From a virus (Duplodnaviria; Caudoviricetes): a stretch of DNA of 56,611 nt. Numbering within the stretch: the stretch's first letter is position 1; every line of letters begins with the position of its first letter. The DNA is taken from IMG/VR virus record IMGVR_UViG_3300005077_000420, positions 1 to 56,611 of that record. The stretch is one strand, 5' to 3'. A program made the translations under genes and the position numbers. Under the pieces are notes generated by a model. It did no database searches, was not told the origin of the DNA, and saw only the letters and a list, made by a program, of their open reading frames with translations. Of the stretch, positions 3,525-8,117 are shown piece by piece.

Positions 3525-3863
3525 TTATATTTTATTTAAATAATTAAAATATAAAATAAATAATTTTTTATATAACCATTTTGGTTTTCGATAATAAAAA
3601 TTATTCCATTTTTTTAATTGAGAATGCGTATATGTTTGATGATAACCAACACAAAATTCAAATAATATTTTTCTTAATATCCATTTAATTTTAGTTTTTC
3701 CATATAATCTAAATATTATACACCAATTATTTTTTTTAGTAACAAATTCACATAATTTATTATTATAAATACACAGTCCGTTTAAATGATAATCATAATG
3801 ATTAGATATCCATTTAAAATTAACTTCATTATATGGAATTATATTAAGAAGTTCTTTTTGCAT
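3525..3863 (-). CDS. hypothetical protein
   Basis: 112 aa ORF, TAATG-coupled to the upstream gene. Confidence 0.65.
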   Translation of the reverse strand: MQKELLNIIPYNEVNFKWISNHYDYHLNGLCIYNNKLCEFVTKKNNWCIIFRLYGKTKIKWILRKILFEFCVGYHQTYTHSQLKKWNNFYYRKPKWLYKKLFILYFNYLNKI

Positions 3864-4669
3864 TATTTATAATTATCCTTTATTATATCCCATGTTTGTT
3901 TCATTAATTTTGTTCTTGTTTCTCCACGATCAGAAAATCCTGAAAATATCCATACATCAAAAAATCTAATAAAATGTGGTAATTTATATTTTTCATCTGA
4001 AAAATGTTGAGACATTTGCCAACTATTATTTAATACCTCATGTCGATATAAATGATTAACTCCATATTTAATAGGTAGAAAATTAACAGGAATATTATAT
4101 TTTGTAAGTAAATAGTTAATTACTGGTTGATCTCGACCTCGTTTTACAATAACATCTTCTCTTCTAATTATTTCATCTTTATTTTCATAATAAAAATTCT
4201 TAACTATATTCCAAAAATAATGATGTTGTTTAAAAAATAAAATAAAACCACTTGCAATATAATTATTTAAATTAAAATTTACATCAAGAAATAAATCTTG
4301 ATATCCTATAGAACTTTGATAAGTCCATTTTAAATTTTCATTTGCTTTTAATGCAGAAAATTTATCTTTATATAATTCAATTAAATCTGGAGCATCCCAT
4401 TTAATCATAATAGAAGCATCTGTTGATAAAACTGCATCATAATCCAATGGAATTATTTGATCTAAATATAACCATCGTTGCCAATTAATTTTTACTTTTA
4501 ATGTATCAGATTCAATTGGATTTTCAAATGGAATAAAAACATATCCATATTTATTGCAGTAATATTCCCATGTCAATCTGGAATAATTCATCCATTCAAA
4601 GTCTCCATAATTATATTTATTTGATGCTTCTTTATTTTTTATTCCTGTCCATAATAATATTTTCTTCAT
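3863..4669 (-). CDS. GT-A fold glycosyltransferase (GT8/GT34-like)
   Basis: WQRW, STDASIMIKWDAPD, SGFILF and GRDQPVINY motifs; resembles the C-terminal half of 8731-10062; probable start MKKILLW at 4669. Confidence 0.7.
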   Translation of the reverse strand: MKKILLWTGIKNKEASNKYNYGDFEWMNYSRLTWEYYCNKYGYVFIPFENPIESDTLKVKINWQRWLYLDQIIPLDYDAVLSTDASIMIKWDAPDLIELYKDKFSALKANENLKWTYQSSIGYQDLFLDVNFNLNNYIASGFILFFKQHHYFWNIVKNFYYENKDEIIRREDVIVKRGRDQPVINYLLTKYNIPVNFLPIKYGVNHLYRHEVLNNSWQMSQHFSDEKYKLPHFIRFFDVWIFSGFSDRGETRTKLMKQTWDIIKDNYK

Positions 4670-4679
4670 ATTTGGCTTT

Positions 4680-5228
4680 CTAATTATGTACTTCTTTAAA
4701 TTCAATTACTTCATATTTTCCATAACTTAAACGATACGTTCCTATACCTTCTTTTCCAGCTTCAACTAAAATATTTTTCATTGTTTCATTATTTATATGT
4801 TCATCTGCATTTGAAATTATATGAAATTCAAATTCCCAATTTTTCCATATAGGTCTTGCTATTGGACTTCTACATTTTGTATTCGGATTAACAATAGTAT
4901 CTATATTTATTTCATAATTTTCTGGATTCTTTGGTTGTAAAAAATATATAAATTCTTCTTCAACAATAATACTTTGAGCGCATAAATTTTTATATGTTTT
5001 TTTCCCTTGCCATTTAATTTGAGTTGCACCTTTTATAATTGATCTTTCAACATGATTTGATGGTTGAATAATAATACCATTATTATCCAAATATAAACAT
5101 TTTTTTACATCCTTCACTGGATCAAAAATAGTTGATTTTTTTGTTTTTCCAATAGAAATTTCTTCAATTGGAAATCTTTTATGCATTAATGGTCTTATTC
5201 CCTGTATTCTAACATAATATCGTTTCAT
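4680..5228 (-). CDS. stand-alone Cas7/RAMP-like RNA-binding protein (182 aa)
   Basis: RAMP-type order of motifs: YYVRIQGIRPL (beta1), IIIQPSNHVERSI (IPgSslkG-like), thumb hairpin IDTIVNPNTKCRSPIARP, WEFEFHI, C-terminal G-rich loop AGKEGIGTYRLSYGKYEV; start MKRYY at 5228 with GAGG RBS at 5234-5237. Confidence 0.72.
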   Translation of the reverse strand: MKRYYVRIQGIRPLMHKRFPIEEISIGKTKKSTIFDPVKDVKKCLYLDNNGIIIQPSNHVERSIIKGATQIKWQGKKTYKNLCAQSIIVEEEFIYFLQPKNPENYEINIDTIVNPNTKCRSPIARPIWKNWEFEFHIISNADEHINNETMKNILVEAGKEGIGTYRLSYGKYEVIEFKEVHN

Positions 5229-5244
5229 ATTAACCTCATTAAAA

Positions 5245-5279
5245 ACACTACAACACACTACATGACAACACGCCACGTC
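5245..5279 (-). repeat. 5-nt-period repeat tract (NN-YGT)x7, candidate small guide RNA
   Basis: minus strand reads GA-CGT-GG-CGT-GT-TGT-CA-TGT-AG-TGT-GT-TGT-AG-TGT followed by TTTT; 17 of 35 bases are G/C, against a very AT-rich background; intergenic, directly 5' of the RAMP-like gene. Confidence 0.8.
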
Positions 5280-5288
5280 ATTATAAAA

Positions 5289-6152
5289 TTATTTTCTATT
5301 TCGTATAAAACCAAAAAATCTTTTTGTATCATTTTCTTTTTTAATTTCTGATTGTTTTTTTATTTCTTTTAATCTATCTTCAGTTAATGTTTCTAATTCT
5401 CTCATTTCATCAATAATATCAGAAGGTATATCATACATTTTAGGATATCCATATAAAACTTTTTGACTTTCATCATATTCAATAATAAATGCTCCTATAT
5501 CTGGAGTTTCATTAAATACTTTTCTTTCCATATAATCTGTAGAATATTGAAATGCTGGAGTTATATATGCTTGAATTCCAGATTTTTGAATTCCATAAAA
5601 AATATGACCATGTGATCTAACAATCATTGTAGGACATTTTGTTTTTGTTTTTACTGCATCTTTTTGAACATTATCCATTTCTTTTTTCAACGATGATAAT
5701 GTAAATCCTGCCGCATGTTTAAATTGTATTTTTTCATTTTCAATTAATAATTCATATATATTTCTATGATATGTTCCACCCAATTTTTCAATTACTTGTC
5801 TATCTAAATTTGCTCCTGCTCTACTACTATTATGATATCCACTACCTGCAATACCATGTACTTTAGTATTATTTCCAATAATAGGTTTTAATAATTCAAT
5901 TGCAAAATTTATTTGTTCATCAGTATCAGTTGTTATTGCTTCAACTCCAGCTTGTAAACTTTGATTTCCATCACATATATCACCATTTAAAATTAAATAA
6001 TCTGGAAATTTATAAGTTTTAATAATATCTTCATATATATTTAATACCCATTTTTGAAATGGATTTGAATAATAATAATTTTCTATTGTCCTTTTTGGAT
6101 TTAAACCTCTTATATGACCACAATGCATATCCGATAGTGTTAATATTCGCAA
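5289..6152 (-). CDS. calcineurin-like metallophosphoesterase
   Basis: SDMHCG, NGDICDG, GSGYH and SHGH motifs; TTG start. Confidence 0.85.
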   Translation of the reverse strand: MRILTLSDMHCGHIRGLNPKRTIENYYYSNPFQKWVLNIYEDIIKTYKFPDYLILNGDICDGNQSLQAGVEAITTDTDEQINFAIELLKPIIGNNTKVHGIAGSGYHNSSRAGANLDRQVIEKLGGTYHRNIYELLIENEKIQFKHAAGFTLSSLKKEMDNVQKDAVKTKTKCPTMIVRSHGHIFYGIQKSGIQAYITPAFQYSTDYMERKVFNETPDIGAFIIEYDESQKVLYGYPKMYDIPSDIIDEMRELETLTEDRLKEIKKQSEIKKENDTKRFFGFIRNRK

Positions 6153-6162
6153 TTCAGTTCTC

Positions 6163-6648
6163 CTAAATAATTAATAGTTTATTTTTTAAAAAATTAAATA
6201 ATTTTGTATTTGATTTATCAATATATTTATTAATATCAATAATAGTATTATTTAATTCCCATTTTTTAAAATCAGTTTTATCAAAACAATCTTTACATAT
6301 TGTTAAAATCCATCCTTTGGTTTTACCTATATTATTAATTGTTCCACAAAATTCACATATAGATAATGATATAATTCTTGCAAATTCTACTAAATTATAT
6401 ATATATTCATCTTCATCTCCACCATCATAATAAACTGAAAGGAATCCAAATTTTTCTTTAATTTGTGTTATTTTAACTTGAATAATATTATGTGTATCTA
6501 TATAAGACTGAATATCATAACATAAACAATCTAATAATTCATACCAACCATTACGATGTGAAAATTCATATACAGATATATTTTGATTATCATCAATAAA
6601 TAATTTTGGATATTTATTTATTATTTGTTGTTCTAATTCATAATCCAT
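6163..6648 (-). CDS. conserved phage hypothetical protein with C-terminal Zn ribbon
   Basis: GWYELL, QIKEKFG, CEFCG and GWILTICKDC; probable start MDYELE at 6648. Confidence 0.7.
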   Translation of the reverse strand: MDYELEQQIINKYPKLFIDDNQNISVYEFSHRNGWYELLDCLCYDIQSYIDTHNIIQVKITQIKEKFGFLSVYYDGGDEDEYIYNLVEFARIISLSICEFCGTINNIGKTKGWILTICKDCFDKTDFKKWELNNTIIDINKYIDKSNTKLFNFLKNKLLII

Positions 6649-6652
6649 TATA

Positions 6653-7054
6653 TTAATCTTTCTGAACAAAGATTTTATAAGTAACTGTTTGAATAAAATA
6701 CCATGCACATGACATCATTAATATTGATAAAAATATTCCAAATATACTATTATATGATTTTAAAGAAATATATAATAAAATTATAAATACATTAATATTT
6801 TTAAAAAAATGTTGACCATCCCAAAATATAGGATGTAATAAAAATTTTATTGTTAAATGTTTAAATGTTAATATATAATAACGATACTCGTTACTATCAT
6901 ATGATTGTAACCATGTATATAATTTAAAATATTTATTTTTTAATCGTTGAAATATACTATTAGAAAACCAACGATCAAATTCAATTATTTCTCTTAATCT
7001 ATCAAAAAATGCAAGTAAAGAAATAAAAATAAGAAATTCAATTATTATATCCAT
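6653..7054 (-). CDS. membrane protein, hypothetical
   Basis: several hydrophobic segments, GGAG RBS. Confidence 0.7.
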   Translation of the reverse strand: MDIIIEFLIFISLLAFFDRLREIIEFDRWFSNSIFQRLKNKYFKLYTWLQSYDSNEYRYYILTFKHLTIKFLLHPIFWDGQHFFKNINVFIILLYISLKSYNSIFGIFLSILMMSCAWYFIQTVTYKIFVQKD

Positions 7055-7082
7055 TCATTCTACTCCAAATTAATTATTTAAA

Positions 7083-7547
7083 TTACTTATTATCATTTTT
7101 ATTAAATTCATAATTCTTAGCCATATATGACATTCTACGATTATTAACTATTAAAAATAATACAGGCATTATTATAAATGATAATATTAATGCAATATAT
7201 AAGAAATACTTTAACAAAATAATAGATATTATTGTTCCAATCGTATCTGATATTAAATCTTTAAATGAAAATCCTTGTATATTTCCATCAGAATCATATG
7301 GTTTTGTGCCATCTTTTATTTCCCAAACAAATCCAATAAATACTGATATAATAAATGTTGAATATAATGCAAAATTAATTACTGACAATTTAGATGTATC
7401 TAAAAATAAATTTATAAATCCAAGATTTAAAAACCATATTATAGTTGTACCAACAATTGATAATAATAAATGTTCAAGTTTATCATATTTAAAAATACTC
7501 CCCTGTGTACTTAACCATTTATCTATATTCCATTTTAAAAATTTCAT
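7083..7547 (-). CDS. VanZ/YfiM-like membrane protein
   Basis: DKLEH, WEIKD and FSFKDLISDTIG motifs with 3-4 TM segments. Confidence 0.6.
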   Translation of the reverse strand: MKFLKWNIDKWLSTQGSIFKYDKLEHLLLSIVGTTIIWFLNLGFINLFLDTSKLSVINFALYSTFIISVFIGFVWEIKDGTKPYDSDGNIQGFSFKDLISDTIGTIISIILLKYFLYIALILSFIIMPVLFLIVNNRRMSYMAKNYEFNKNDNK

Positions 7548-7577: not shown

Positions 7578-8117
7578 TTATCTATTATCACCGTCTCCAT
7601 TAATTTTTCCTCTATTAAATCGGGATAATAATTTATCACTATTTGTTTGTAATACAGTATTCATATCAAATCCATAGTTTTTAGCTATATATGATATTCT
7701 ATAAAAAACTGTAATTAATATACTTTGTACAAAATTTTTATATTCATCATTAATTTTATTATAATTAATAAAATCTTCATCATCTCGTAATAATTTTCCT
7801 GTTTTCTCTGATAATTTTGATGTTAATATACATATATCTATAAAATTATAAAATACTTCACTTTTATTATATAATGTATCATTTTTTATATTTAATACAT
7901 TATAATCTAATCCTAAATCCTGAAAAATAGCAAATATATACCAAACAACATCTCCCATTTCTTTATTTAACTCATCATTAGATGAATTTGGTGTTAAAAA
8001 TTTTTCAAATAATTCTCCACATTCTCCATTTATTTTAAGAATTGGATAAATAACTGCATATTGTGTTGGATATTTTTTTACTTTTAATACCATTTCATTA
8101 TATTCATTTAAATTCAT
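7578..8117 (-). CDS. mazG: MazG-like NTP pyrophosphohydrolase
   Basis: GECGELFEK, KEMGDVVWY and C-terminal NSDKLLSRFNRGKINGDGDNR. Confidence 0.85.
   Translation of the reverse strand: MNLNEYNEMVLKVKKYPTQYAVIYPILKINGECGELFEKFLTPNSSNDELNKEMGDVVWYIFAIFQDLGLDYNVLNIKNDTLYNKSEVFYNFIDICILTSKLSEKTGKLLRDDEDFINYNKINDEYKNFVQSILITVFYRISYIAKNYGFDMNTVLQTNSDKLLSRFNRGKINGDGDNR

Follow-up and report, generated by a model that had tools for sequence, protein, structure and literature searches.

A probable VIPR module with a short YGT/NN repeat tract beside a metallophosphoesterase gene in a T4-like phage fragment

Does a small Cas7-like protein of a phage, encoded directly downstream of a tract of five-nucleotide repeats, belong to a known kind of RNA-guided system, and could the tract serve as its guide? 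The question is raised by a locus in a linear IMG/VR virus record of 56,611 bases (CheckV completeness 27%), the whole of which was analysed and is called the window below. A reading of the sequence alone had noted a 182-aa ORF with an upstream (NN-YGT)x7 tract. Both were confirmed, at positions 4680-5228 and 5245-5279, respectively, and the locus has the following layout:

5289-6152, minus strand: metallophosphoesterase gene (287 aa), a candidate vap-like enzyme, predicted phosphodiesterase or nuclease
5229-5288, minus strand: spacer of 60 nt between the phosphoesterase gene and vipr, with a TATAAT-like hexamer, the tract, a T-run and GAGG
5245-5279, minus strand: candidate vrRNA repeat tract, seven consecutive NN-YGT units by direct reading
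4680-5228, minus strand: vipr gene, encoding a 182-aa Vipr-family RAMP (P0001) with a G-loop GIGTYR at residues 161-166 and a thumb hairpin at about residues 106-128

The vipr reading frame runs from an ATG at 5228-5226 to a stop codon at 4680-4682 (182 aa plus stop), and a GAGG ribosome-binding site is found at 5237-5234, five bases 5' of the ATG. The phosphoesterase gene upstream ends with its stop at 5289 on the same strand. The gap between the two genes had been described as almost filled by a GC-rich repeat; its length of 60 nt, the period of five and the high G+C content (48.6% in the tract versus 21.8% in the window) all hold, but the tract occupies only 35 of the 60 nt, and "almost" was generous. 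The 3' end of the tract lies 7 nt before the GAGG and 16 nt before the vipr ATG. In the VIPR register (x1 G2 T3 N4 N5) two CGT triplets are followed by five TGT, and the dinucleotides with triplets on either side are GG, GT, CA, AG, GT and AG. G2 and T3 are intact in all seven units, and x1 is a pyrimidine in all seven. A G+C-rich tract inside an AT-rich genome argues for selection. When both strands were scanned for (YGTNN)x7 with at most three mismatches, the tract, in four overlapping registers, was the sole site in the window, against a chance expectation of 0.01 sites (100 dinucleotide-preserving shuffles), and a looser scan for GTNNN x6 with at most two mismatches again gives only the tract (0.31 expected). 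The locus has this one tract of seven units, and the next downstream ORF abuts the vipr stop.

The start codon deserves a separate remark. In the public annotation the ORF is called as P0002 (168 aa), with a start that lies 14 codons too far downstream; the alignment with homologues begins at the earlier ATG, the one preceded by GAGG. A longer reading of 198 aa from a GTG at 5276, by which the tract would be coding, is unsupported, four of six homologues starting at the M1 position.

The sequence-only reading had likened the locus to viral systems of this kind, and such systems do exist in print. VIPR (Viral Interference Programmable Repeat) was described in two preprints of 2026 (10.64898/2026.04.26.720920; 10.64898/2026.04.26.720927). 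It consists of a phage-borne Vipr RAMP and a vrRNA in which 9-16 YNNGG units are followed by a 3' tail, the figure of 9-16 units applying to type II (YNNGG) vrRNAs. The NN bases recognize dsDNA and pass over one base for each unit, i.e. one in three (10.64898/2026.04.26.720920). Seven types (I-VII) and accessory vap genes (vap1-6) have been distinguished; the accessory proteins of type II are predicted to be DNA-binding, and in phage SUSP1 one vrRNA lies upstream of vipr (10.64898/2026.04.26.720920). Cryo-EM shows one Vipr protomer per repeat, with H17 and D177 reading G1, R138 and W178 holding G2, and R179 forming part of the Y3 pocket (10.64898/2026.04.26.720927). Besides the canonical unit, the alternative repeats NNNGG, YNNNG and NNNNG are given (10.64898/2026.04.26.720920, Methods "VIPR type classification"), and a further preprint reports 21 clusters of non-canonical arrays, including WGT/NN and TGH/NN, for which a motif repeat count of 10 is given (10.64898/2026.10.21.760802). 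Satellites and solo vrRNAs are the subject of another (10.64898/2026.10.15.759431). VIPR, as a RAMP of about 20 kDa that reads DNA by a gapped RNA code, has been proposed as the ancestor of CRISPR effectors.

The 182-aa protein has no match in Pfam, and in PHROGs it matches phrog_4652 (E 1.2e-11), for which no function is given there. Among sequences of solved structures the sole match is the "SUSP1 Vipr protein" (PDB 36pp_D). With the single sequence, phmmer aligns residues 41-175 to it at E 1e-4; with a profile of seven sequences (P0001 and six homologues) the match extends over residues 2-177, the full length, at E 1.1e-15. The closest homologues are P0003 (56% identity) and P0007. The family is large: a search with the profile yields 3,625 representative clusters at E<=1e-3, and 1,066 at 1e-10. 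An AlphaFold2 model built from 76 sequences (pLDDT 94.7, pTM 0.88) has the elements of a RAMP: a strand at residues 2-10, a helix at 57-68, a thumb beta hairpin at 106-113 and 120-128, a strand at 132-139, and the loop GIGTYR at 161-166 followed by a strand at 172-180. The RAMP-type motifs that had been picked out from the sequence follow the same order, and their positions agree with these elements. In a Foldseek comparison the top ranks are taken by Csm3 subunits of type III-A complexes (9ash_F, E 9.9e-9). In all, 130 chains reach E<=1e-3, and among viral models three fold matches were found at this threshold, one of which is named as a Cas-associated RAMP. Sequence homology and the predicted fold together identify the protein as a Cas7-like RAMP of the Vipr family, homologous in sequence to the experimentally characterized Vipr of SUSP1, and so bear out both the Cas7/RAMP-like assignment and the likeness to VIPR.

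The locus is not a member of a CRISPR-Cas system. Identity to the Cas7 backbone subunits of class 1 effectors (Csm3, Cmr4, type VII Cas7) is 10-18%, and unlike these the protein here has no cas partners and no CRISPR array, and a step of 5 nt instead of 6 nt. As had been stated from the sequence, no Cas family could be identified by Pfam among 44 ORFs of the window (56.6 kb of a record that is 27% complete) or by PADLOC in the four ORFs around the tract (3863-6708), and Tandem Repeats Finder lists no CRISPR-like array in the window. Further features of VIPR are present: seven tandem pentanucleotide units adjoin the gene on its strand, where at least four are expected, and within the 56.6 kb window the gene stands in the non-CRISPR context of a stand-alone gene or simple two-gene operon.

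The likeness to the SUSP1 type II system (PDB 36pp) extends beyond the homology of the small RAMP (E 1.1e-15, as above). Both are phage-borne without cas genes or CRISPR array, both form a two-gene module, the second gene of the window being a candidate accessory gene, and both have, beside vipr and on its strand, a repeat of period 5 in which a triplet is conserved and two bases vary. The residues holding G2 and Y3 are conserved, and the change falls on the residue that contacts G1:

SUSP1 R138, R125 in the window protein: kept
SUSP1 W178, Y165 in the window protein: counted as kept
SUSP1 R179, R166 in the window protein: kept
SUSP1 D177 (contacts G1), T164 in the window protein: changed

In other respects the locus differs from the published systems. 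The triplet is YGT where the canonical one is GGY (YNNGG unit), and the Asp of the G-loop is replaced by Thr. The tract has 7 units, compared with 9-16 in type II vrRNAs and the count of 10 given for non-canonical motifs. No pseudoknotted tail of about 40 nt as in SUSP1-type VIPR is detectable, and there is no dedicated promoter block as in the SUSP1 relative Alf5. Finally, the candidate accessory gene encodes a metallophosphoesterase, while those of type II encode predicted DNA-binding proteins. No conserved or structured 3' tail is detectable after the tract: shuffled sequences fold as stably as the RNA of 5200-5300 (z -0.14), no Rfam match was found in 4000-6500 at E<=1, and IMG/VR scans with P0001, P0003 and P0007 gave no closer relatives with DNA.

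The related loci examined are 35 IMG/VR loci (25-38% identity), 16 metagenome loci (32-49%) and one locus from a genome collection. In the 2.5 kb to either side of the gene, a script recorded runs of five or more units in which G is followed, in constant phase, by a pyrimidine. In the Alf5 phage, used as a positive control, the published layout with tails was recovered. Most of the 51 related loci with DNA have period-5 arrays beside the vipr homologue. In 26 of the 35 IMG/VR loci the runs have G at x1 in at least 70% of units, i.e. the canonical GGY/NN repeat, and these GGY/NN arrays lie upstream, downstream or on both sides of the gene, on the gene strand. The 5' position of the tract had been thought a possible mark of distinctness; this does not hold, as SUSP1 itself has an upstream vrRNA and upstream repeat units were found by the script in 15 of the 51 loci.

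The clade closest to the window protein is characterized by the G-loop GIGT and includes 16 loci with DNA (L036-L050 and L052), 15 of which have runs, with 811 units in 74 runs. Over these 811 units x1 is A in 81%, T in 9%, G in 8% and C in 2%, and the third triplet position is T in 93%. The entropy is high at N4 (1.89 bits) and N5 (1.93 bits), versus 0.96 at x1 and 0.36 at Y3. Uninterrupted runs have a median of 10 units and a range of 5-25, five being the threshold of the script, and the seven units of the window fall towards the lower limit. Period-5 arrays of xGT/NN adjoin the genes of the closest clade, on the same strand as these, and the tract of the window shares their period, register, strand and position. 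The check proposed from the sequence, that flanks of homologues should hold period-5 tracts with a conserved triplet and variable NN, is borne out for this clade as a whole, though not for the window locus itself.

Could the tract nevertheless be a chance neighbour of vipr, i.e. an element near a promoter, something like a terminator, or a site bound by a different protein? It is abutted by a TATAAT-like hexamer at 5285-5280, and a prediction places a weak terminator-like hairpin within it. However, 22 promoter-like sites were found versus 23.6 expected from shuffles, so that the hexamer is no evidence of a promoter, and the fold is, as described, no better than that of shuffles. The tract is moreover the only one of its kind in 56.6 kb, and it matches the arrays beside most related genes in period, register, strand and position. 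We regard a chance neighbour as very improbable.

Several clade members have arrays that are more elaborate than the single tract of the window. L045 (3560-3960), L049 (3545-4110) and L036 (915-1330) contain many vrRNA-like blocks of about 8-23 units each. The blocks end in one to four AA-AGT units and are separated by 3-8 nt of conserved, locus-specific punctuation, with no long tail; they may correspond to the tail-less or staggered arrays of the preprint. In L042 (2840-2960) an upstream block of 13 units is followed by a G+C-rich inverted repeat, resembling a hairpin or terminator, and then by vipr, and some clade members may thus have a structured 3' end that is absent from the window. L036 and L038 encode Vipr proteins identical in 174 of 177 aa (522 of 531 nt of the CDS), yet their upstream arrays, anchored at the right end, are identical at only 39 of 160 positions. 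In this comparison (L036:220-380 with L038:365-525; vipr 98% identical) it is the upstream arrays that differ, the first downstream blocks being almost the same; guide turnover is therefore local and fast.

The first base of the triplet appears to follow the G-loop. Loci whose G-loop reads GxGD followed by an aromatic residue have G at x1, and in the 16 GIGT loci x1 is mainly A (13 loci) or a mixture (L037 and L050), with no run by the strict rule in L040. Aligned family sequences hence suggest that the change from Asp to Thr in the G-loop goes with the loss of G at x1, as would fit the part that D177 plays in the structure. All GIGT proteins fall into one clade (23 rows, SH-aLRT 99 in a quick tree from which the short row L030 was dropped), and the D-to-T and G-to-A covariation therefore represents one evolutionary event and not independent replication. 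The locus and its relatives in this way add evidence from natural variation on how x1 is read, Asp occurring with G and Thr with A or a degenerate base, in agreement with the contact observed by cryo-EM.

Within this pattern the window stands apart. Its x1 series is C, C, T, T, T, T, T, with A in none of the seven units. Given the composition of the minus strand, seven pyrimidines would have a probability of 0.003 and the lack of A a probability of 0.02; given the usage of the clade, the lack of A in seven units would have a probability of about 1e-5 (an arithmetical estimate). At the position of SUSP1 H17 the window protein has Lys17, and the pair of Lys17 and Thr164 occurs in three of 157 family members examined, which are the window protein, P0003 and P0007. 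The two loci with Ser at this position are the same two that have a mixed x1. That residue 17 alone sets the first base is an explanation weakened by the Asp class, in which H (70) and N (44) both go with GGY; it follows that residue 17 is at most a secondary determinant.

Outside the clade, two distant Vipr homologues adjoin period-5 tracts that lack G at x1 almost entirely. In L012 (5768-6366; G-loop GIGDKR) x1 is G in none of 14 units, and in L027 (4922-5623; G-loop GIGAWR) in one of six. Both are further candidates for non-canonical codes.

With respect to published repeat classes, the xGT/NN repeat of the closest clade (A 81%, T 9%) equals WGT/NN and fits YNNNG. The triplets of the window also fit the reported class YNNNG and overlap WGT/NN, in that five of the seven are TGT; two are CGT, and AGT does not occur. 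The suggestion that YGT marks a distinct variant is consequently not sustained: the closest clade uses xGT/NN, and both YNNNG and WGT/NN have been reported. The system, including non-GGY repeat classes that take in the closest clade, is already in print, and the locus is a further example with unusual details. These are the single tract, its seven units, the lack of a detectable 3' tail and the all-pyrimidine x1.

The same details could be read as decay, the tract being the remaining part of a longer vrRNA array whose guide function is being lost or has been lost. Relatives have tens of units (11 to 135 per locus in the 15 clade loci with runs) where the window has a single tract of seven, the tract deviates at x1 from what is consensus in the clade, and there is no room for an array downstream because the next ORF abuts the vipr stop. 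Against this, neutral decay should erode both the triplet and the base composition, whereas none of the seven units has lost G2 or T3, and the G+C content of the tract is still 48.6% within 21.8%. The frames and key residues of vipr and of the phosphoesterase gene are intact as well, and runs of 7-8 units adjoining vipr are also found among relatives, for example in L047. A decaying remnant is in our view distinctly unlikely.

The gene upstream of the spacer encodes a calcineurin-like metallophosphoesterase. All 14 aligned homologues have the Pfam Metallophos domain; the copy in the window scores E 5e-4 and 21.0 bits, just under the cut-off of 21.5 bits, and the metal-binding residues D8, H10, D58, H107, H146, H181 and H183 are invariant. 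The best profile match in the PDB is the DP1 exonuclease (small) subunit of archaeal PolD (E 3.5e-8), and the AlphaFold2 model (pLDDT 85.9) matches the folds of GpdQ, Rv0805, DP1 and Mre11 with similar scores. From these sequence and model comparisons a role as a nuclease is plausible. The gene is found next to vipr in 15 of 52 loci overall and, within the clade, in 12 of 16; the remaining four are contigs of 1.0-2.0 kb in which the short upstream flank is filled by arrays. For six other neighbours in the window no homologue was found in the 53 loci (L001-L053). With the phosphoesterase alone conserved beside vipr, the two genes form a conserved module, and the earlier description of a "solo" or one-protein system has to be dropped. 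None of the terms metallo, Mre11 and calcineurin is used in the main text, supplements aside, of the preprint that describes vap1-6. A conserved metallophosphoesterase partner, related in fold to the DP1 and Mre11 nucleases, would tie an enzymatic outcome to targeting by Vipr.

Taken together, we consider it likely, if well short of certain, that the locus is a VIPR module in a large T4-like phage fragment, consisting of a phosphoesterase accessory gene, one short tract and vipr. By analogy with its relatives the tract is probably the guide RNA of Vipr. On the model of SUSP1, it would be transcribed, probably with the operon, and one Vipr protomer would bind each 5-nt unit, sequestering the G and U of the triplet and presenting the two variable bases. 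Six or seven NN dinucleotides (12-14 specified bases) would then pair with dsDNA, every third base being skipped, and by the same homology the likely target would be a competing mobile element or a site in the host. The neighbouring gene suggests that the phosphoesterase may act on the bound DNA, in which case the result may be cutting of that DNA, as opposed to repression alone.

Putative targets were sought with a pattern skipping one nucleotide per unit, built from the dinucleotides of the tract. In the window and its record there are no matches at up to two mismatches, and at three mismatches there are five, versus 5.36 expected. In IMG/VR the pattern gives 92 stretches versus at least 117 for a reversed-pattern control, and the hits cluster like those of the control (103 versus 96 similar pairs). 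The scan thus shows no signal, and a database of this size would call for more than 14 specified bases. A guide of 12-14 specified bases suffices for uniqueness in a phage or small genome, but is too little for a database search. No RNA sequencing run was found for the window, and one DNA run shared 0.08 of sampled words with it; alignment of the contigs of this run to the window gave only short AT-rich pieces of 38-165 nt, none of which falls on 5171-5304.

Caution is called for by four features of the tract, namely its shortness, the lack of a tail, its closeness to the ribosome-binding site and the absence of A at x1. Besides the possibility of a remnant, it may act in cis on the translation of vipr. 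Vipr would then polymerise on its own mRNA leader and throttle its own translation, and the dinucleotides would hold no targeting information. The distances of 7 nt to the GAGG and 16 nt to the ATG suit such a site, as do the upstream arrays of L036 and L038, which run in phase into the Shine-Dalgarno sequence; a short, tail-less tract without an identifiable target fits as well. On the other hand, the upstream arrays of relatives have hypervariable, guide-like NN positions, and G-rich dinucleotides would be unexpected in an AT-rich genome if unconstrained. A module without a guide would also leave Vipr and the phosphoesterase without a target, and the available text of the VIPR preprints describes no role of this kind. 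A purely cis-acting site is therefore an unlikely account of the tract.

Of the VIPR module with a guide a more specific form can be proposed. In this form a Vipr with Lys17 and Thr164 would read a pyrimidine at x1 (a YGU/NN code), its guide would be the tail-less seven-unit tract in the 60-nt spacer of its own operon, and the guide RNA would both direct the DP1/Mre11-like phosphoesterase to cut matching DNA and limit the translation of vipr. We hold this full form to be unlikely; if true, it would be a smaller, enzyme-tied VIPR configuration than the available text of the preprints describes. If the seven-unit, tail-less tract is functional, the known minimum size of a VIPR guide would be lowered. 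The VIPR concept is left unchanged by these data, while its specificity rules and its catalogue are refined.

The locus adds an example of VIPR from a large AT-rich T4-like phage. All larger ORFs of the window are on the minus strand, and no tRNA genes were found in it. The ORFs flanking vipr (3525-4705 and 5289-7547) have no match in PHROGs. The remainder of the window includes the following:

30640-56584 and 359-2268: T4-like replication/repair set, with DNA methylase, PD-(D/E)XK nuclease, gp44-like clamp loader, family B polymerase, SprT-like protein, ribonucleotide reductase, DnaB-like helicase, 5'-3' exonuclease, RecA-like, gp32-like, ThyX and pyrimidine-dimer glycosylase
7578-8117: MazG-like gene

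Between these, a run of sugar-modification genes (8731-30399) could be identified, with three DegT/DnrJ-type aminotransferases, two epimerase/dehydratases, several glycosyltransferases, a sulfotransferase and methyltransferases. Glycosylation of DNA or of the virion, or modification of the host surface, are candidate purposes of this cluster.
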